Shown here: positions 1,719-28,319 of the stretch, one piece after another
Numbering within the stretch: position 1 is the stretch's first letter
Layout: each line of letters begins with the position of its first letter
Virus record (IMG/VR): IMGVR_UViG_3300037882_002341
Span: 958-64,957 of that record
Direction: 5' to 3' (one strand)
Source: a virus
Lineage: Duplodnaviria; Heunggongvirae; Uroviricota; Caudoviricetes
DNA: 64,000 nt
Notes under the pieces: generated by a model
Seen by the model: only the letters and a program-made list of their open reading frames with translations
Told to the model about the DNA's origin: nothing
Database searches by the model: none
Made by a program: the position numbers and the translations under genes

Positions 1719-2151
1719 TATGCTTTTCTTCCTCGGTAAACCTTTTTAGGGGAGGTTTGACCCAAGATGCAAAAGGTTTTGCACACCACTCTTTGACAAG
1801 AGTTACATCAAGTCCTCTGTTAGAGGCGAGAGAATAGAAACGTTCAGGCCATTGTTCAGGCTCGAACTGATCGTGAATACGTTGGGCACTATCTGCGATA
1901 CCATATTGAATAGTATCAATTCCTTTATTCTCCAGGAATACTCTAAGTCTTTGACTTCTTTCTGAAGCACAGGGGTCTCTTAGACTTGCATATCTTACTG
2001 TTTCTACTTCTTCATCAGTTAAGAAGATACCTAAGGCACATTTCGTTCCTTCAGGTCCTCTATATAAACAAGTTAAACTACTATCTGTAGATTTCCTTCC
2101 CTGTTTTTGTAGATGCTCAACGATCTTGTCGAGTACTTCTTGATCTGTCAT
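1708..2151 (-). CDS. phage protein with CxYRG..GxKCALG and Q.IHD motifs
   Basis: 147 aa; motif pattern typical of a common uncharacterised phage family; ATGA overlap with the upstream gene. Confidence 0.75.
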   Translation of the reverse strand: MTDQEVLDKIVEHLQKQGRKSTDSSLTCLYRGPEGTKCALGIFLTDEEVETVRYASLRDPCASERSQRLRVFLENKGIDTIQYGIADSAQRIHDQFEPEQWPERFYSLASNRGLDVTLVKEWCAKPFASWVKPPLKRFTEEEKHNVN

Positions 2152-2525
2152 ATAATTACCTTTTCCAGGGGTTTACGATCATCGATAATTTCTTGAGCAA
2201 TAATTCTTATTTCATTACGACTAGTGGTCTTGATTTGGCTACTATAGGTAAGTCCATTTAGACAAGGGTCAACACTATGAAATGTGTAAGGTGCTAACTT
2301 TTTCCATAAAGCACCGAGAAGTGTAGGTAATTCTCTACATCTCTTATTCTCTACCTCCGGTAGAGCTATTACCATGGGTCAAGCTATTCCACTAACATAA
2401 TCATAGATTCCGCCATCTAATAGTATAGGTTTTCCTTCTTTAATCCATTGTGCGAGTCTTTCTAATCCTTCTGTTGGAATCTGTACTAGACCTAGCTTTA
2501 TGATTCCTTTAGTTTCTGGGAGCAT
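2148..2525 (-). CDS. putative selenoprotein, paralog A (125 aa; Sec at codon 49, TGA at 2379-2381)
   Basis: MLPETKGIIKLGLVQIPTEGLERLAQWIKEGKPILLDGGIYDYVSGIA-TGA-PMVIALPEVE...; both halves homologous to five other copies; SECIS-like hairpin downstream. Confidence 0.8.
2349..2365 (-). promoter_or_regulatory. putative bacterial SECIS (paralog A)
   Basis: mRNA sense CTCTACC-GGA-GGTAGAG, 7 bp stem, loop begins at +21 from UGA. Confidence 0.75.
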
Positions 2526-2534
2526 ATTTTTCTC

Positions 2535-2735
2535 TTATTCTTTAAGCAGTTTATCTAATAATATATTTAACTGTTTTACATCAATCTCTCCATGTATTTG
2601 TCTTATTACCTTACCAACAAGAATTCCCTTAACAGCAGTTTTCCCAGTACGATATTTTGCAACTATATCGGGATTTGTGGCAAGAATTTTAAGACAGATA
2701 TTACGAAGGCTAGTATCGTCTTCTTCGATTGTCAT
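2535..2735 (-). CDS. stand-alone GatB/YqeY C-terminal-like domain protein
   Basis: DD..L...C..IL..NPD.V.KYR.GK....G.LVG.V.....G..D...L..LL pattern matches the GatB C-terminal helical tail. Confidence 0.7.
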   Translation of the reverse strand: MTIEEDDTSLRNICLKILATNPDIVAKYRTGKTAVKGILVGKVIRQIHGEIDVKQLNILLDKLLKE

Positions 2736-2740
2736 AATAT

Positions 2741-2899
2741 CTACTTTTTATTGAACTTACCTAATCTACGAGACCACTTATCTTTCTTGTGGCCGGAATC
2801 TGCCTTAGAACGTTTCGGATTAGGTGGCATGATTCCTGTCTTAGTAATCGCTAAATCTCTCTTACGTCTCTCCTCTGAGGTCCAACGTATCTTTTTCAT
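2741..2899 (-). CDS. small highly basic protein (52 aa)
   Basis: MKKIRWTSEERRKRDL...; AAGGA RBS upstream; below the ORF-track cutoff. Confidence 0.55.
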   Translation of the reverse strand: MKKIRWTSEERRKRDLAITKTGIMPPNPKRSKADSGHKKDKWSRRLGKFNKK

Positions 2900-2926
2900 T
2901 CCGTTCCTTTATGGGATCAATAAAAT

Positions 2927-3337
2927 TCATAATTGGATATCTAATTTAGATTCATTAATGATTTCTTGTGCGATGTCTCGAATCTCACTAGGTGTAAAGT
3001 TTTTCAGTGAATGAGAATATCTTAATATTCTTTCTTGTTCTTCATATTCTTCTGCACTTGCAGTAATAGCATTACCCATAATGGGATCAATGTCGAACTC
3101 TATATATCCAAGTTTACGCCATCTATATCCTAGGTCTGAAAAGCAGTCGAAATCCTTTTGTTCTTCCTCCGGAAGAGCTACAACCATAGGTCAGTGAACA
3201 CCTTTCGATGTTACTGCTCCATTTAACAGTAACTCTTTACCGCCATCTATCCAGGCTATAAGTCTTAAAAGTCCATTAATTGGGATTTGCTTCAGAGCAG
3301 TTTTTACAACTAATCTTTGTTTATCTATAAGTTTCAT
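2927..3337 (-). CDS. putative selenoprotein, paralog B (136 aa; Sec at codon 49, TGA at 3191-3193)
   Basis: MKLIDKQRLVVKTALKQIPINGLLRLIAWIDGGKELLLNGAVTSKGVH-TGA-PMVVALPEEE... Confidence 0.8.
3162..3176 (-). promoter_or_regulatory. putative bacterial SECIS (paralog B)
   Basis: TCTTCC-GGA-GGAAGA, loop at +21. Confidence 0.75.
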
Positions 3338-3348
3338 TTAAAACTCTC

Positions 3349-3720
3349 TTATTTGTGCCCATTAAGAATATCTTGAGCAATTTTCTTAATATCACTAGGA
3401 GTAGTGTTAATAAGTTCTTGAGTGTAAGTGGTTAATGCTTTTCCACTTTTATCAAGAACATGTGGATTTACACTAAAGTGTCCAAGAAAACCATTTCTTT
3501 TCCAAACTTCTCCTAAAACCAGGATTCTTTGTGCAAAACGAGTAATTTCTGCCGACGGCAGAGCAGCGACCATGGGTCAGAATAAACTCTCACTTGCCCA
3601 AATTCTTCCATCTAATAGTAAAGGTTTACCATTATCAATCCACTCTATTAGTCTTAAAAGACCAGGAGCAGGAATCTGTTCTAAACCTTGTCTTATTGCC
3701 TTTACTGTTAGCTCTTTCAT
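3349..3720 (-). CDS. putative selenoprotein, paralog C (123 aa; Sec at codon 48, TGA at 3577-3579)
   Basis: MKELTVKAIRQGLEQIPAPGLLRLIEWIDNGKPLLLDGRIWASESLF-TGA-PMVAALPSAE... Confidence 0.8.
3548..3562 (-). promoter_or_regulatory. putative bacterial SECIS (paralog C)
   Basis: TCTGCC-GTC-GGCAGA, loop G at +21. Confidence 0.72.
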
Positions 3721-3725
3721 ATTAT

Positions 3726-4247
3726 CTATAACCTTATCTTTAATCCCATTGTTTCTTTCATATGCAAAAGTGCCTCTACATTACCTTTTGCATCATCAAC
3801 AGGATTATGTGTATGTTTCGTTTTACGAAGATGCTTAAAATTCTTAAAGGTATCTTTCACCAATCCCTTATAGAGAGATCCAAGATTTGTCGAACTAAAT
3901 CCAAATGGATTAGATCCTAAGAAATGATGGAAATACCAGTTTACAAATTGCCAATCAAAACCATTATTATCAGAGATAAACATTGGTTTATCATTACATG
4001 AAACCGTTGTTATCCAGTTACGGAAAGCACACATGACTTTTGTCGGATCTTCAAAAGCTAGTGTTTGCTCACGGCTGAAGTTACTTATAGCTAGTGCTTC
4101 AGGTATCCATAAATGAGAGATTGGTGCCATGAAGCCTAGAAAAGCATGGTCTAAAGATGGCTCCACAACAATTGCACCCAGTGCAATCATTGAGTAATCA
4201 CCTGGAATTGGGCCATCTGTCTCAACATCAACCATGATATATGTCAT
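3726..4247 (-). CDS. DEDDh 3'-5' exonuclease (RNase AS/Rv2179c-like)
   Basis: MVDVETDG (ExoI), NNGFDW (ExoII), HTHNPVDDA (ExoIII). Confidence 0.88.
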   Translation of the reverse strand: MTYIMVDVETDGPIPGDYSMIALGAIVVEPSLDHAFLGFMAPISHLWIPEALAISNFSREQTLAFEDPTKVMCAFRNWITTVSCNDKPMFISDNNGFDWQFVNWYFHHFLGSNPFGFSSTNLGSLYKGLVKDTFKNFKHLRKTKHTHNPVDDAKGNVEALLHMKETMGLKIRL

Positions 4248-4259
4248 ATTATTTTCTAG

Positions 4260-4658
4260 TTAAAGTTGTTCATAGGACAATCTACTTTGTTCAGATCTCT
4301 CGGTTAACAGCATATTTATAACTAATAGAATGTGTGCAGTTGTTGAAGTTCTAAGTGCCATAAAATACGAGTTCTTTTCAATCTCTGGATTATTTAAGAA
4401 CTCATTGTTCTTAAATCCCAGATACATTCTTGCACCCTCTATTAATCCATTGACTCTTGCAACAGATTCTCTTGTTTCCTCCGGAAACAAATGTACTTGA
4501 GGTCAGAAAAGTCCTTCTGCACTAGAAACATAACCACTTAGTAGGAGTTTTCCTCCTTCTTCTATATATTTCTTAAGTCTCTGAAGTGCTTCTATTGGGG
4601 TTCTACCTTCTTGTCCCAGACCCAAAGATAGAAGTCTTATCCTCATGCTCTCTTCCAT
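4260..4658 (-). CDS. putative selenoprotein, paralog D (132 aa; Sec at codon 52, TGA at 4503-4505)
   Basis: MEESMRIRLLSLGLGQEGRTPIEALQRLKKYIEEGGKLLLSGYVSSAEGLF-TGA-PQVHLFPEET...; no ATG just after the TGA. Confidence 0.78.
4472..4490 (-). promoter_or_regulatory. putative bacterial SECIS (paralog D)
   Basis: TTGTTTCC-GGA-GGAAACAA, 8 bp stem, loop at +21. Confidence 0.75.
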
Positions 4659-4660
4659 AA

Positions 4661-5143
4661 TTACCTTATTTTCTCTATCAGTTTATATTTCTTTATCAGG
4701 GTATTGAGATAAATCCTTATCTCTTTTAATGTGGTTCTTCCATACTTGTTATTAGGTCCGTTGTAGAAAAGTTTCCAGCTTTCTTCAATACTAATATCGA
4801 AGAATTGAGCGAGAGTACTAACACCTACATATCCCGTAGGTATCTGCATTCCCTCGGATCCCAAATCAAGGGTAAATCCTCTTTTCTGAAACCAAGGATC
4901 TAGTCCAGCCCAACCAGCTACGCAACAAACTGTTTGGCAAGGAGGAATATCTTTTTCTCTTATTTTCTCGTCCTTTACTCTTTTCAAGTAACTAAGCATA
5001 TCAAGCTTATTACTGAATACAGAACCCCATCGACTGATAAAGAATGCTCCTGAGGGTTTCTTTGCTACTTTATCTAGTACTCTTTTAAGTTGGAGGAGTT
5101 TTCCATATCCAGTACTTTTATCTACAAACATCTTGTTACTCAT
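4661..5143 (-). CDS. phage protein, CxTxCCVxGWAG family, copy 2
   Basis: CQTVCCVAGWAGLDPWFQKRG; clear paralog of 512..1006. Confidence 0.8.
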   Translation of the reverse strand: MSNKMFVDKSTGYGKLLQLKRVLDKVAKKPSGAFFISRWGSVFSNKLDMLSYLKRVKDEKIREKDIPPCQTVCCVAGWAGLDPWFQKRGFTLDLGSEGMQIPTGYVGVSTLAQFFDISIEESWKLFYNGPNNKYGRTTLKEIRIYLNTLIKKYKLIEKIR

Positions 5144-5147
5144 ATTA

Positions 5148-5426
5148 TTATTTTTCCACTATGATAGAGAAATCAGGAGATATTTCGACTTTACGTCCAT
5201 CTTTTAAGTAAAGCGTATGTGATCCATCTTCATGTTTACTTATCTCTTTAACACCTAACCAGTAATCTACTCTTTTACCGGTAGATCCCTTTTTATATAC
5301 ATCTACTTTCATGCTAGGTATAGAAGGTGATTTGGGGCCGCACTGAGTAGTAAAGATAGGAATAGATAAAAGAGATACAAGTAGGAAAGGTACTATTGAA
5401 GTATTACGATTAGAGATATTCTTCAT
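5148..5426 (-). CDS. putative lipoprotein/exported protein, copy 1
   Basis: Hydrophobic N-terminus then Cys (TQCGP); paralog of 8064..8336. Confidence 0.7.
   Translation of the reverse strand: MKNISNRNTSIVPFLLVSLLSIPIFTTQCGPKSPSIPSMKVDVYKKGSTGKRVDYWLGVKEISKHEDGSHTLYLKDGRKVEISPDFSIIVEK
5221..5272. repeat. 52-bp exact direct repeat (second copy 8137..8188)
   Basis: gatccatcttcatgtttacttatctctttaacacctaaccagtaatctactc at both positions. Confidence 0.9.
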
Positions 5427-5479
5427 AAAGAGATCTCTTCTTATAGTGAGGATATTAAGAAGTTATTTAATAGTTACCA

Positions 5480-5881
5480 CTAAAGATGACTTCTAAGAAC
5501 ATACCGCTCACCAATATTATCTGAGAGCCATTTGGCAGTTCTTTTCATATCTTTAGTAGTAAATAACTCATTAGGACCAAACATCATTTCATCATAAAGA
5601 CAATAGCCATCAGGTGTATAAACACCCAGATCCATAATGGCTTTTCCTTTACAATGACATGTTCTACCTAGTTTGTCTCTTTTCCATGGTGTAACCCAAG
5701 TTAGATCAATAGACTTAACTATTGTCCAACGTTTCTTGTAATAATTATAAATCCTGTCTCCTGGTGATAAAGCAGCTACACGAGCTACTAATATCCACCA
5801 AGTACGCCAGGTATATTGAATACCATCATGAAAAGGAGCTTTCCATTTCTTCTCGTTTACTCCTCTATTGAACTTTTTCAT
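5480..5881 (-). CDS. hypothetical protein
   Basis: 133 aa ORF in the gene string. Confidence 0.7.
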   Translation of the reverse strand: MKKFNRGVNEKKWKAPFHDGIQYTWRTWWILVARVAALSPGDRIYNYYKKRWTIVKSIDLTWVTPWKRDKLGRTCHCKGKAIMDLGVYTPDGYCLYDEMMFGPNELFTTKDMKRTAKWLSDNIGERYVLRSHL

Positions 5882-5883
5882 GG

Positions 5884-6279
5884 TTATTCCTTCTTAGGTT
5901 CTTCCTCAATTAGTTCTTCTACAGCAGTGCGGACACCAGAAATACCATAAAGAGCTAAAGCAAATACATACGATTCTTCGCGTATGTCACAATTTGGATT
6001 TGCCGAGAAAGATTCAACACCATGAGCAATCCACTTACCTTCTAAAAAAGGCACTATCTTTATGCCCGATCTCTTTGATGCATCAATAACTTCTTGACGT
6101 GCTTCTCCCGGAAGCATTACAACCATAGGTCAAGGAGCACCGTTCAAATCGACTATATAGCCTGTTGTACTAATAGGCTCTCCTTTATCAATAGCTTTAA
6201 GGAGACGTCGATATGCACGTATATCTTTTACCTGGCCAAGTCCAGCTTTCAATATGTTTAAGTGTCTACGGTTTATCAT
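5884..6279 (-). CDS. putative selenoprotein, paralog E (131 aa; Sec at codon 50, TGA at 6130-6132)
   Basis: MINRRHLNILKAGLGQVKDIRAYRRLLKAIDKGEPISTTGYIVDLNGAP-TGA-PMVVMLPGEA... Confidence 0.78.
6100..6116 (-). promoter_or_regulatory. putative bacterial SECIS (paralog E)
   Basis: TGCTTC-CGGGA-GAAGCA, G at +21 retained. Confidence 0.7.
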
Positions 6280-6283
6280 TGGT

Positions 6284-6427
6284 CTATCTTTCTTTACTCT
6301 TATTAAGCTTAGTCTGAATAGCCTTTAGCTTTTTGCGTATCTCCTCTTTAGACAAGTGAACATGAATACTATTGTGTCTAATAGTGCTATTCTTACTAGG
6401 TTTATTAAGAGGTTTCTTCTTAGACAT
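6284..6427 (-). CDS. small basic protein (47 aa)
   Basis: MSKKKPLNKP...; GAGG RBS; fills the gap between genes. Confidence 0.5.
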   Translation of the reverse strand: MSKKKPLNKPSKNSTIRHNSIHVHLSKEEIRKKLKAIQTKLNKSKER

Positions 6428-6438
6428 ACCAGTAACCT

Positions 6439-6870
6439 CTATTGCTTATACTTCTCTAGTAATTTATTAATATATATTCTTACTTCTTCTAGTGTAGTAC
6501 GAGTAAAGTTATTATTAGGTCCAGTGTAGAAAAGCTTTTCACTCTCATCAGCAGTAATATTAAAAAACAATTGAACATCTTCTGGAAGTGCTACTTTACT
6601 AAAGATAAGTAAAGCATTTATTCCTAGATCAATAACAAGTCCTCTTTCTTGGAACCAGGGATCTGACCCTGCCCAACCTCCAACACAACAGATTGTTTTA
6701 CATGCTGGAACATCTTCTATTAAATTTCTGGATCTTAAGAAACCAAGTACTTCTTCATCAGTGCTGAACTTTTTACCCCATACTCCAAAATAAAATGCTC
6801 CCTGTGCTTTTGTTGATATCTCGTCCATCACTCTCTTGAGATTGAGAAGTCTCTCATATGTGGTATTCAT
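6439..6870 (-). CDS. phage protein, CxTxCCVxGWAG family, copy 3
   Basis: CKTICCVGGWAGSDPWFQERG...LFYTGPNN. Confidence 0.8.
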   Translation of the reverse strand: MNTTYERLLNLKRVMDEISTKAQGAFYFGVWGKKFSTDEEVLGFLRSRNLIEDVPACKTICCVGGWAGSDPWFQERGLVIDLGINALLIFSKVALPEDVQLFFNITADESEKLFYTGPNNNFTRTTLEEVRIYINKLLEKYKQ

Positions 6871-6884
6871 AGTTATTTACCTCT

Positions 6885-7220
6885 TTACTTATCCATAATT
6901 GAGTAAATAAGCCATCCCATTAGGACTGCCATAAGTGGATGGCCTAAATTTATTACAAAGCTCTGTGACACTACCTTTCGCCATAACTTATTCTCATAAT
7001 CCGTTTCTATTCTTTGCGGATGGAACAGGTTAACAGTGGTAGATATACCAAGAGCCCACCACATTGATAGAGTGGGTGCTCCTAATGGAACAATAAACCA
7101 TGTCCAGAGTTTACACAAAGCCCAGCCTCTAAGGAAGGTTCCTACTATGATACCTATTAATACTATTAAGCATCCAAGACTAAGTTCGGTACTATCTGGA
7201 TCATCTTTAAACTCGGACAT
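6885..7220 (-). CDS. membrane protein
   Basis: About three hydrophobic segments; LWTWFIVPLGAP motif. Confidence 0.75.
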   Translation of the reverse strand: MSEFKDDPDSTELSLGCLIVLIGIIVGTFLRGWALCKLWTWFIVPLGAPTLSMWWALGISTTVNLFHPQRIETDYENKLWRKVVSQSFVINLGHPLMAVLMGWLIYSIMDK

Positions 7221-7382
7221 GATTTACTTTCTTTTAATAAGTAATACTTAAAAGTCACTATTACCAGGCCAGGTCTTGTTAAAGATAGTCGCTAAGACGG
7301 TTACAATTGCTACAGTTACAGGAACTCCGGTAATGACTATTAACCATTCATTACAATTCATAGATTACTTTCTTAGTTCTGA

Positions 7383-7649
7383 TTAACTGATCTTTTCACA
7401 CTCTTTAATTAGTGAAGAAGCATCAGCTCTATGATCCTCAGCCCATTCTTGAATAACATACACAGAATAAGGCTCTAGATCAGCTACTGTAGTATTCTCG
7501 AATGGATAGGGACAAGAACATCCACTATCTGTGGCGTAGAAAAGCTTGTTATCTGACTTTCTTCTGTATACACGTAGTGTACAGAATTCATAGAATAGAT
7601 CAGGCTCATCAAGATCTCCTACGACATCGTATTCTGAGTCTAGATCCAT
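7383..7649 (-). CDS. acidic phage protein with DSGCSC motif
   Basis: YATDSGCSCPYPFE motif; AGGA RBS. Confidence 0.75.
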   Translation of the reverse strand: MDLDSEYDVVGDLDEPDLFYEFCTLRVYRRKSDNKLFYATDSGCSCPYPFENTTVADLEPYSVYVIQEWAEDHRADASSLIKECEKIS

Positions 7650-7865
7650 AGTATTTTCCTAATGTTAGACAATATTATTATGTTTTACTCGTCTTCTGAT
7701 ACTACGGGTGAGGACTAATTAGCGATTTTCTGGATAGCCTCGCTAATATCAATCATAGCCCATCCAATAACTCCAATCCAAAGTGTAATTGATATGAGAC
7801 AGACAATCACTATTACGTTTCCGAATGTTACCTCTATCTTAGTTTCGTTAGCCAAGGTATTTCCT

Positions 7866-8051
7866 TTACTTGTGTTTTTCTGGGTGCACTAGTGGAACAA
7901 GTAATTGTCCTCGATCATCGATACCATGCATGGTTTCAAGACGTTCAAGTCGATCATTGCTATTACAACTTGTTCCAATTATTCCCGCTAAGAGCAAAAG
8001 TCCCATGAACAGAGTCCATATTCATGCAGGTTCTTTGTTTTCGGTGGACAC
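7866..8051 (-). CDS. small lipoprotein-like ORF interrupted by in-frame TGA (8022-8024)
   Basis: AAGGAG RBS + GTG, MSTENKEPA-TGA-IWTLFMGLLLLAGIIGTSC...; may instead start at the internal ATG. Confidence 0.45.
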
Positions 8052-8063
8052 TTTATTTCTCCT

Positions 8064-8336
8064 TTACTTTTCTACTATGATGGAGAAGTCTGAAGGGATT
8101 TCAATTTGGCGTCCATCTCTTAAATAAAGAGTATAAGATCCATCTTCATGTTTACTTATCTCTTTAACACCTAACCAGTAATCTACTCGATCACCGGATT
8201 TATCCTTTTTATATACTTGAACATACATAGAAGGTTGTCTAACGGTAGTTGGTCCACAACTAACAAGTACTCCAATAACAAAAGCAAGTGCTATTAGAAA
8301 GAAGACAAGAAGAAGGTTAAGTCTGAAATTACTCAT
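8064..8336 (-). CDS. putative lipoprotein, copy 2
   Basis: Signal-like N-terminus with LVSC lipobox; paralog of 5148..5426. Confidence 0.72.
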   Translation of the reverse strand: MSNFRLNLLLVFFLIALAFVIGVLVSCGPTTVRQPSMYVQVYKKDKSGDRVDYWLGVKEISKHEDGSYTLYLRDGRQIEIPSDFSIIVEK

Positions 8337-8439
8337 TAGGATGAAATCCTTACAAAAGAGTAATGAGTACATTAGGAGGTTAAAGGAAAGGGATATACAT
8401 ATTAAGGAAGAGGAAGTTAGTACTAAAGGTAGTAACGTA

Positions 8440-8709
8440 TTATCTTACTTCCTCTACTCTTACACATTCCCACCAGTCATATGGATAATCCATTGTTGTT
8501 GTTGGATTTATCCATGACACACGCATTGTTCCATCATCCCATTTTACATAATGGAGATCTTTGCATGTAAGGAGCTGTGGACCAGTGTTTCGCTCTGCCA
8601 CATATAGATCACCTGGTTCAATAGAACCTGGTTTCATTCTAAGATTAATTCCTTCTAGATTAAGGACACCTCCATCCAGAAGGACTTTTAATGACTTGTA
8701 CTCTCTCAT
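8440..8709 (-). CDS. hypothetical protein
   Basis: 89 aa; GGAG RBS. Confidence 0.7.
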   Translation of the reverse strand: MREYKSLKVLLDGGVLNLEGINLRMKPGSIEPGDLYVAERNTGPQLLTCKDLHYVKWDDGTMRVSWINPTTTMDYPYDWWECVRVEEVR

Positions 8710-8847
8710 CTAATCTCCCTTTTGCGGCGTATTCTTTACATATACACAACACTCTTCACATCCATTACACTCTAAACATATGTACTTGGAATTCCTAGTC
8801 CCACATACGTTACAAAGATACTCAGATTCCATTCTTAGAAGAAGCAT
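8710..8847 (-). CDS. small Cys-rich zinc-finger-like protein
   Basis: CNVC...CLECNGCEECC, 45 aa. Confidence 0.5.
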   Translation of the reverse strand: MLLLRMESEYLCNVCGTRNSKYICLECNGCEECCVYVKNTPQKGD

Positions 8848-9295
8848 AGTTCTACCTTCGCAATAGTAGTAAGAGCGTTAGATGTCTCTCTCTTGTAATA
8901 GCGCGCTAGAAATAGAAAAGTTGCTGTGTAGGTTCAATCCCACTTCAGCCTCAGTACTATTTATTTCCAGGCTCAATCCAGCCTATGTCCTTCATGAGCT
9001 CGAGCTACGCTCGAGCCTATCTCCAGGCTAAGTCTAGCTTATCCCTCTTGTAATCCCCGAGCCTAGGTTTTAAGAGCAAAGATGGGCATGGTATCCTCTC
9101 GGACAGGTTGCCTCTTGGATATCCACAGTTTGAGAGCTCTTGGTAGCTCTCTTCTCTGGATCTTTGCTCTTTTATATAAAACAGGGGTCGCAAAAGCTTT
9201 TGTTCTTTTGAGCCTAAGTCTTAAGAGTTCTTCTTGAAGAGTTCTTAAAAATTAGCCTCGAAAATGCCCTCTGGGAGGGGGTAAAGTACAACTTC

Positions 9296-9511
9296 TTACC
9301 AGTTCTCTCTTAAGAACTCCATGCAAGCTTCTATTCTCCAGTCCTGGAAGAAGGGATCGAGATCACTTGCCCGGATACGTTCTGCTAGATCTGGTCTTAC
9401 GGAACATAGTTCATTAAATAAGAACTGTCCCTTGCGCCATGACCCTGGACGGGTTATGAAAGATAAAGTTACCCTACCCGCAAATTGCTCATAGTTCTCT
9501 TTATCTGGCAT
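9296..9511 (-). CDS. phage protein (WRxGQ..FN...RPDLA..IR....DPF motif)
   Basis: 71 aa; motif typical of a widespread small phage protein. Confidence 0.75.
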   Translation of the reverse strand: MPDKENYEQFAGRVTLSFITRPGSWRKGQFLFNELCSVRPDLAERIRASDLDPFFQDWRIEACMEFLRENW

Positions 9512-9899
9512 CTTTATTTCCTACGTTAAGAATAGCCTGTGCTATTTCCTTAATGTCTTCTACGCTGACTAATGAAAGACTTGATCCATAACTAAGATAT
9601 CTCTCTATGCTCGGATCCCAAAATTCCGGGTCTACCTGGAAAAGAGGGACACCATTAAGCATCCAAGCTCCCGAAAGGGATAGATCTGAATCAAGACAGT
9701 CAATCCTGGATCGCTCTGCCTCCGGCAGAGCGCAGACCATAGGTCAAAAGAGCTTCTCTCCGTTTGCTTTTGTACAAGTAATTTGACCAGTAAGTAATAC
9801 TGGCTTACCAGCATTGATCCATTCTATTAGTCTCAAAAGACCATCCGTAGGGATCTGATCCAGACCATTATGGATAGTCTTTCTTATGATATCCAGCAT
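9501..9899 (-). CDS. putative selenoprotein, paralog F (132 aa; Sec at codon 52, TGA at 9744-9746)
   Basis: MLDIIRKTIHNGLDQIPTDGLLRLIEWINAGKPVLLTGQITCTKANGEKLF-TGA-PMVCALPEAE...; AAGGA RBS before the upstream ATG. Confidence 0.8.
9712..9732 (-). promoter_or_regulatory. putative bacterial SECIS (paralog F)
   Basis: CGCTCTGCC-GGA-GGCAGAGCG, 9 bp stem after an 11-nt spacer from UGA, loop at +21. Confidence 0.78.
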
Positions 9900-9910
9900 C
9901 TTTATTCCTT

Positions 9911-10051
9911 TCAAGTGGACCTAAATCCAGGACATCTTCTTTCTTTATTAGGACTAGTATGTCCGTGCCATAGGCACATCTTGCATACTTCTTCGCCGCA
10001 AATAACACAACATGCTATTATCACCCTCTCATTGCATAGAGTGCAAACCAT
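9911..10051 (-). CDS. small Cys-rich zinc-finger-like protein
   Basis: MVCTLC...CCVICGEEVCKMC..H.H, 46 aa. Confidence 0.5.
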   Translation of the reverse strand: MVCTLCNERVIIACCVICGEEVCKMCLWHGHTSPNKERRCPGFRST

Positions 10052-10523: not shown

Positions 10524-10601
10524 TGGTAGGGGCACAGGGATTTGAACCCTGAACCTGTCGGTTATATGCCGACTGCTCTAGCCAGGTTGAGCTATACCCC
10601 G
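10524..10601 (-). tRNA. atypical tRNA, anticodon TAT (Ile-like), A at position 33
   Basis: Full cloverleaf, GTCGG-CATATAA-CCGAC arm, TTCAAAT T-loop, encoded CCA, 1:72 mismatch. Confidence 0.8.
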
Positions 10602-22933: not shown

Positions 22934-23009
22934 GGGGATGAGGATAAAGAGTCGAGTCGCCGACCTGTCACGTCGGAAAAAGCGAGTTCAAGTCTCGTCT
23001 TCCCCGCCA
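22934..23009 (+). tRNA. tRNA-Asp(GTC)
   Basis: Loop CTGTCAC, GCCA. Confidence 0.85.
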
Positions 23010-24379: not shown

Positions 24380-24473
24380 GCACCCATAGCTCTTGGTAGA
24401 GCAGGGGCCCTTATAAAGCCTTTTACCGGCAGATTACCGGAAGGATACAGTTCGATTCTATATGGGTGTACCA
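24380..24473 (+). tRNA. tRNA-Ile(TAT) with long variable arm
   Basis: Loop CTTATAA; CCGG-CAGATTA-CCGG variable arm; CCA. Confidence 0.82.
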
Positions 24474-28067: not shown

Positions 28068-28245
28068 AAAGAGCTTTACCTTTGATTTTGCACTGAGTTT
28101 TGAACTATATCCACGTTATTGGACAATAGACTATTGGTTTGAAATCTCCAATATCAAAAGATTTATGACTTTTGGATTGGTCCTTGGTCCTATAACGTTC
28201 ACGTTAGATCTTTATAGAAGCATAACTAAAATGATGCCTAAATAG
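28060..28245 (+). CDS. hypothetical protein
   Basis: 61 aa, aromatic-rich. Confidence 0.6.
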   Translation: MDRKSFTFDFALSFELYPRYWTIDYWFEISNIKRFMTFGLVLGPITFTLDLYRSITKMMPK

Positions 28246-28319
28246 TCTTGTAAGGGGCAAGAGCAGACTGTAAATCTGATGTGAAAACCCTGTGGGCTCG
28301 AATCCCACTTTAGGCACCA
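28236..28319 (+). tRNA. tRNA-Tyr(GTA)
   Basis: Loop CTGTAAA, extended variable region, CCA. Confidence 0.85.

Follow-up and report, generated by a model that had tools for sequence, protein, structure and literature searches.

The closest described counterparts of the genes considered here are the bacterial selenoprotein genes that depend on SelB and a selenocysteine insertion sequence (SECIS), with fdhF of Escherichia coli as the prototype. In such genes an in-frame UGA is conserved among homologs, the uninterrupted homologs mostly carry Cys at the same site, and a hairpin follows right after the UGA inside the open reading frame (ORF); a TGA that lacks this element can be a true stop in the same gene. 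The bacterial SECIS model, as summarized in a figure legend, calls for a loop of 3-9 nt, a stem of 4-16 bp, a G in the first two loop positions, a distance of 16-37 nt from the UGA and a minimum free energy (MFE) of at most -7.5 kcal/mol (PMC13188914, Fig. 2 legend). Here we describe a stretch of 64,000 nucleotides (the window, bases 958-64957) of the IMG/VR virus record IMGVR_UViG_3300037882_002341, which is 192,957 bp long and has direct terminal repeats. The window contains members of a previously undescribed phage-borne family of proteins of ~120-135 residues whose conserved in-frame UGA, judging from the sequences, very probably encodes selenocysteine (Sec).

Selenocysteine decoding has so far been treated as a cellular trait. 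In the part of a 2021 recoding review that deals with viral selenoproteins, the glutathione peroxidases (GPx) of molluscum contagiosum and fowlpox viruses are the only two examples (PMC8310308), and a review from 2026 on the selenoproteome of prokaryotes (PMC13188914) does not use the words 'phage', 'virus' or 'viral' anywhere in its main text. Our full-text literature searches likewise turned up no paper, among those listed, that describes a natural bacteriophage selenoprotein. The poxvirus genes resemble the present case in that a virus-encoded selenoprotein relies on the Sec machinery of the host, and in fowlpox virus the SECIS is inside the coding region; they differ in that the virus is eukaryotic, the gene is a captured cellular GPx gene and the SECIS is of the eukaryotic type (PMC8310308). 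Here, in contrast, a bacteriophage carries a family without a named cellular relative, and its hairpin resembles the bacterial type. A comparison of another kind is the A1 protein of the RNA phage Qbeta, which is said to arise by UGA readthrough, with an inserted Trp that is reportedly unimportant and an extension that forms a separate domain. As in that reported case, a leaky UGA in a phage gene would yield a short and an extended product; unlike in Qbeta, the UGA here appears to lie inside a single domain, at a column that is Cys in relatives.

Nine paralogous genes with an in-frame TGA

An earlier description of the window made without database searches (the sequence-only reading) had reported six minus-strand genes with an in-frame TGA, and both the ORF listings and the DNA place all six exactly where it had put them. 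In window coordinates, and all on the (-) strand, these are c1 (2148..2525, 125 codons, in-frame TGA at 2379-2381), c2 (2927..3337, 136 codons, TGA at 3191-3193), c3 (3349..3720, 123 codons, TGA at 3577-3579; the sequence used for modelling), c4 (4260..4658, 132 codons, TGA at 4503-4505), c5 (5884..6279, 131 codons, TGA at 6130-6132) and c6 (9501..9899, 132 codons from the ATG at 9899, TGA at 9744-9746; a TTG at 9914 is also open). Each consists of an N-terminal part of 47-51 aa, the TGA, a CCC or CCT codon and an in-frame C-terminal part that is homologous among the copies.

A profile of the six copies was compared with the six-frame translation of the whole genome. This gave nine family copies with E-values from 5e-50 to 1e-15, the next-best match having E = 3, and a separate genome search also returned nine matches, each with one internal TGA. 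In other words, a family of six is correct for the window, whereas the genome holds nine, all with the TGA; the three further copies are at genome positions 139319-139732, 167855-168271 and 188149-188613. Similarly, the codon after the TGA had been given as CCY, which fits the six window copies, but the nine-copy set requires CCN since CCA occurs too. ATG-GTN follows TGA-CCN in five of the six window copies, and an ATG is present at this place in 8/9 genome copies, c4 with CAA being the sole exception. The paralogs share 24-48% identity pairwise. No significant profile or fold match to the family was found in Pfam, PHROG, NCBIfam, PADLOC or the PDB; the sequence-only reading had not been able to assign it to a known selenoprotein family.

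The genetic code of the phage is standard, with no reassignment, because coding density under translation table 11 is 92% (a greedy set of 232 ORFs, the longest of 2289 aa) and TGA ends ordinary ORFs. The stop codon is inside the record for 231 of these ORFs, one being cut by the record's end, and stop usage is TAA 129, TAG 68 and TGA 34. Most genes thus end in TAA, as had been noted, but three family copies, i.e. c1 (stop at 2148-2150), c2 and the 188 kb copy, have TGA as their own terminal stop. Were TGA a sense codon throughout in the phage or its host (code 4 or 25), the two Trp and one Gly found at the site in database relatives (see below) could be translated TGA codons. This explanation is already contradicted by the use of TGA as an ordinary stop, in 34 ORFs with three family genes among them, as well as by the coverage of the genome under table 11. 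Moreover, a covariance model of the TGA and its downstream hairpin finds the nine family sites only, and no tRNA with a UCA anticodon is encoded, so that we give reassignment practically no chance of being correct.

Relatives and the residue at the UGA column

A profile search of 1.84 billion (1.84e9) representative proteins at E <= 1e-3 gave 107 hits, of which 16 are halves of the window's own genes and 91 are foreign. The 16 own hits are nine C-halves and seven N-halves, reported as separate small proteins; the statement that gene callers see only the 3' halves was therefore mistaken. The foreign relatives comprise 26 uninterrupted proteins, 47 lone N-halves and 18 lone C-halves. The 47 N-halves end at the aligned TGA position, and 16/18 C-halves start precisely at the Met two residues past the site.

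Of the 26 uninterrupted relatives, 18 have Cys at the TGA column; the others have Trp (two), Ser (two), Asp (two), Gly (one) or Glu (one). Full-length homologs with Cys at the TGA are what the sequence-only reading had held to be decisive, and Trp or Gly, which it had named as the residues that would speak for ordinary readthrough or recoding, are found in 3/26. The number of Cys residues is far above the neutral expectation for a mutated TGA, for which two in eight one-step changes lead to Cys (binomial p = 2.6e-6). The next residue is Pro in 24/26 and the one after it is Met in 20/26 of these relatives. Since Pro-Met is conserved where the protein is uninterrupted, the CCN-ATG of the TGA forms is coding sequence rather than a spacer and a start codon, and the chief ground for assuming a stop-start junction is thereby lost.

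Such a junction is the core of another explanation, namely that there are two translationally coupled genes for proteins of 47-51 aa and 63-91 aa, which form an obligate heterodimer, with UGA-NNN-AUG as a termination-reinitiation site and with a hairpin that would prevent independent translation starts or keep the terminating ribosome in place. The ATG after TGA-CCN is indeed present in 8/9 copies and in both foreign phages for which DNA could be read, most copies have a purine-rich stretch resembling a Shine-Dalgarno (SD) sequence 12-17 nt upstream of this ATG, more family members are split than not, and gene callers already score two genes. However, Met is conserved in 20/26 uninterrupted relatives, where no start codon is possible, the supposed spacer CCN encodes a Pro conserved in 24/26, copy c4 has no ATG, and the SD-like stretch is 4-5 nt further upstream than the usual SD position in this phage (-11 to -7). 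A codon that served only as a stop would also be expected to shift to TAA or TAG with time, but all 11 cases have TGA, and the fused relatives are enriched for Cys and not for a random linker residue. We therefore consider coupled genes very unlikely.

The DNA around the site could be read in two foreign members. The complete phage G017 (63,876 bp) has a single family copy that reads ...SSGFG TGA CCG ATG..., followed by a 7-bp hairpin, and in the contig G018 (36,466 bp), which reads ...EGRG TGA CCG ATG..., the hairpin that follows has GGUC as its loop. Note that G018 was found with a DNA pattern that also permitted TAA, TAG and TGG at the stop; this pattern, with TRR at the position, gave 17 matches, among which G018 is the one true member. 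Together with the nine paralogs, TGA occupies the site in 11/11 DNA-readable members from three phage genomes, i.e. TAA and TAG are absent, in agreement with what had been seen in the six window copies. CCN follows in all 11, with each of the four bases (C, T, A, G) occurring at its third position.

Other searches were less productive. Phage G017 was the single relative obtained when six foreign N-halves were used for a scan. The six-copy alignment, in a word-indexed protein search, retrieved only the window's own C-halves, and no relative emerged from pattern scans of IMG/VR for which the full, the C-half or the N-half alignment was the query. Among 14 pattern matches in a scan for Cys forms (CPMVA[ASG]LP) there was no relative, and the 22 matches to the DNA pattern GKPxLLxG...CCNATGG were all due to chance. 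No family member was found in 17 related phage records (16 IMG/VR terminase relatives with 39-48% identity and Moorella phage MTATph1), and nothing in 50,697 phage records matched one Cys form in a tblastn search. Two metagenome loci were rejected as false positives, as they are type II secretion GspF-like genes that have 'EIKKIAQDI' in common.

Some of the relatives have additional cysteines or domains. In 9/46 foreign N-halves a Cys is found in the last three residues before the stop, as C-G-stop or C-stop (e.g. P0043, P0049, P0059, P0032, P0076 and P0106), and a second Cys precedes the site at -1 or -2 in some relatives, seen as CC or CxC in Cys forms. These sequences point to a possible Cys-Sec redox pair in some family members, but not in the nine paralogs. 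Cys/His-rich, zinc-ribbon-like fusions are present in several Cys-form relatives, N-terminal in P0022 and C-terminal (...SGYTLH.K.C) in P0042, P0046 and P0051, which hints at a role linked to nucleic acids or metals.

The downstream hairpin and the proposed decoding of the UGA

The sequence-only reading expected a SECIS hairpin downstream of the TGA without having seen one. Such a SECIS-like hairpin is present, and its pairing covaries among the copies. In an ungapped alignment of the nine sites it begins 12-13 nt 3' of the UGA and covers the codons for A-L-P-E-x-E, and its loop starts 19-20 nt downstream of the UGA. When an 8-pair structure is imposed on the nine sites, 83% of the cells pair as compared to 68% in shuffled sequences. 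Compensatory changes are seen in 5/8 pairs, one of which occurs as U-A, G-C, A-U and C-G. The covariation score was reached by none of 500 shuffles and was far lower in slid registers. RNAalifold, given the 11 sequences, predicts the same hairpin unaided, with compensatory changes in 4/6 pairs; the register is shifted by one base in copy c7 and in both foreign copies.

In the window the hairpins are, on the (-) strand, CUCUACC GGA GGUAGAG in c1 (2348..2366), CUCUUCC GGA GGAAGA in c2 (3160..3178), where it is found in the centroid structure and the MFE structure is an alternative fold, UCUGCC GUC GGCAGA in c3 (3546..3564), UUGUUUCC GGA GGAAACAA in c4 (4472..4490), UGCUUC CGGGA GAAGCA in c5 (6099..6117) and CGCUCUGCC GGA GGCAGAGCG in c6 (9713..9731), the last having -15.8 kcal/mol when folded alone. 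As in bacterial SECIS elements, the structure is inside the ORF and right after the UGA, with a loop of 3-5 nt, a stem of 6-9 bp and a G in the first two loop positions. The consensus hairpin is the MFE fold in 9/11 members, and these pass the loop, stem, G-in-loop and spacing rules of the bacterial model; 7/11 pass the energy rule too, and two are marginal (-7.1 and -7.4 kcal/mol). The z-scores of the individual hairpins, however, are mostly unremarkable. We also note that in c3 and c6 the sequence GACC-NAU-GGUC around the UGA and AUG is a 4-bp mini-palindrome (window 3570-3582 and 9737-9749, (-)) that is predicted to fold as a small extra hairpin.

Two other roles for the element were examined and rejected. 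A prfB-type +1 frameshift fails as the +1 frame closes at once, and an intrinsic terminator fails as there is no T-run 3' of the hairpin.

The hairpin is located where readthrough stimulators sit, and it is here that programmed readthrough of the UGA by an ordinary tRNA has to be considered. In this explanation a weak UGA-C context and the hairpin would promote near-cognate insertion of Trp (or Cys) and set a fixed ratio between a short N-terminal product and the full-length protein. The base directly 3' of the TGA is C in 9/9 paralogs, and in 11/11 family sites when the foreign members are included, compared to 5/34 ordinary TGA stops. The phage has its own tRNA-Trp(CCA) and tRNA-Cys(GCA), the change of TGA to a sense codon in no paralog would be consistent with a need for partial termination, and Trp is found at the site in 2/26 uninterrupted relatives. 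Near-cognate decoding of UGA in bacteria mainly inserts Trp. Such decoding would not mimic a conserved Cys, the 69% Cys among uninterrupted relatives is not expected if any residue served, Trp is rare at the site, and the phage encodes no suppressor tRNA. The phage tRNA-Trp as a Hirsh-type suppressor was dropped from consideration, its 3-bp D-stem being beyond interpretation. Readthrough, like coupled genes, is disfavoured because of the Cys enrichment and the conserved Pro-Met, and we regard it as unlikely.

The selenocysteine reading, on the other hand, is preferred because the TGA column is Cys in most uninterrupted relatives, the UGA is always kept and the hairpin covaries. A number of observations weigh against it nevertheless. 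The phage encodes no visible Sec machinery, in contrast to what is seen for bacterial SECIS genes: there is no tRNA-Sec and no UCA anticodon among the 31 tRNAs found by ARAGORN and the two found only by Rfam, and the SelA, SelB and SelD domains were not found in a Pfam scan of 221 ORFs. The decoding of Sec would therefore depend on the host. The best score for tRNA-Sec (RF01852) was 36.6 bits, below the cut-off of 47, and no tRNA-Sec was found in G017 and G018 either. Furthermore, nine Sec genes would burden a pathway of low capacity, and so many paralogs in one small genome, from a family and with a fold that are otherwise unmatched, are another difference from the known bacterial genes.

The protein data hold further points of this kind. 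A non-Cys residue is present at the site in 8/26 uninterrupted relatives, none of the nine paralogs has switched its TGA to Cys, and no partner Cys is conserved across them. The split forms exceed the Cys forms (47 N-halves vs 18), i.e. Sec forms appear to outnumber Cys forms, which is unusual for selenoprotein families, and among the database split forms the stop codon could be read only where the N-half is identical letter for letter to that of G017. As regards the hairpins, several are weak (-7.1 to -7.5 kcal/mol), the MFE structure of c2 and c9 is an alternative fold, and Rfam SECIS models gave no match at the gathering score in the window and none at E <= 10 in the region 2000-10000; the loops, unlike those of known bacterial elements, are mostly GGA triloops. 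A loose hairpin filter passes 876/6201 TGA trinucleotides (14%) and 7/34 terminal TGAs; what counts is the fixed position and the covariation rather than a stem as such.

Taking these points together, we consider it likely that this is a phage-restricted selenoprotein family of unmatched fold, in which the Sec form predominates, and that a 193-kb phage with nine copies commandeers the SelB/tRNA-Sec pathway of its host. During infection, the host SelB-GTP-Sec-tRNA(Sec) complex would bind the hairpin just outside the mRNA entrance of the ribosome and, with the UGA in the A site, would insert Sec. Those ribosomes that lose the race to release factor 2 (RF2) would release the N-terminal fragment of 47-51 residues.

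If this is true, phages exploit a host recoding machinery that they do not encode and have kept UGA/Sec in most lineages of the family, with nine instances in a single genome. They would then rely on Sec-competent hosts and on a supply of selenium, and their host range and fitness could depend on selenium. Gene callers, in turn, would systematically break such genes into pairs of small 'hypothetical proteins', and structural and chemical work would gain a small domain, new and with one reactive Sec.

Predicted fold, phage genome and neighbouring genes

A structural check on the two halves had been proposed along with the sequence-only reading. The fused c3 sequence is modelled by AlphaFold2 (AF2) as one domain, with a predicted local distance difference test score (pLDDT) of 93.2 and a predicted template modelling score (pTM) of 0.86; the C-half alone has a pLDDT of 0.46 in its Atlas model. 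From these models we tentatively suggest that the N- and C-halves make one compact alpha/beta domain, in which the Sec, as part of a G-[U/C]-P-M motif, may have a strand on one side and the N-terminal end of a short helix on the other. Reactive nucleophiles and redox residues are typically found in such a place. The proteins, which are located among early accessory genes, would therefore probably be single-selenol redox or covalent-catalysis enzymes, a function that we propose with low confidence. The host-interaction or anti-defence role suggested in the sequence-only reading is speculative.

The terminase, portal, capsid and sheath genes identify the virus as a tailed phage. The Pfam scan also gave matches to the alpha subunit of DNA polymerase III (Pol III), to pieces resembling the beta and beta' subunits of RNA polymerase, and to RecA, NAMPT, class II ribonucleotide reductase (RNR), ThyA, Cpn10 and peptide deformylase. 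The RNA-polymerase beta/beta'-like pieces, Pol III alpha, and NAMPT with a gene resembling phosphoribosyl pyrophosphate (PRPP) synthetase are outside the window (L037:14308-17912; L036:5567-9124; L037:11760-14074). The polymerase and NAMPT/PRPP genes and a total of 33 tRNAs are features of large, considerably autonomous phages. The closest terminase match is that of Moorella phage MTATph1, with 32% identity. A genome scan with DegT gave matches of 44-46% in metagenome-assembled genomes (MAGs) of Gemmatimonadota and Ardenticatenales only, which is uninformative about the host.

Some of the tRNAs deserve mention. A tRNA-Ile(tat) of 94 nt found by ARAGORN at window 24380-24473 (+) has a long variable arm and a well-supported fold (z = -2.7); such an extra arm is seldom combined with a UAU anticodon. 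Another tRNA-Ile(tat) is on the opposite strand at 10524-10601 (-) and has the normal length. The two tRNAs that ARAGORN missed and Rfam added are at 22934-23006 (+) and 28236-28316 (+); according to their folds the anticodon loops have GUC (Asp) and GUA (Tyr), respectively.

The accessory region around the family copies contains other paralogous pairs. Proteins of 160 aa and 143 aa with 46% identity, encoded at window 4661-5143 (-) and 6439-6870 (-), have no Pfam match and have a conserved C-x3-CC-V-[AG]-G-W-A-G motif. Their genes are directly upstream of c4 and c5, respectively, and the fact that each of the two copies adjoins a Cys-rich paralog suggests a duplicated two-gene cassette with a possible partner protein. 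In phage G017, the single family copy is immediately followed by a gene (L044 1892-2788 (+)) for a protein of 298 aa with a 'GIGPVIAAGLLAHI' motif, a putative IS110-like helix-hairpin-helix. A second pair in the accessory region of the window consists of small proteins with 59% identity, encoded at 5148-5426 (-) and 8064-8372 (-), which are lipoprotein-like, i.e. they have a hydrophobic N-terminus followed by a Cys.

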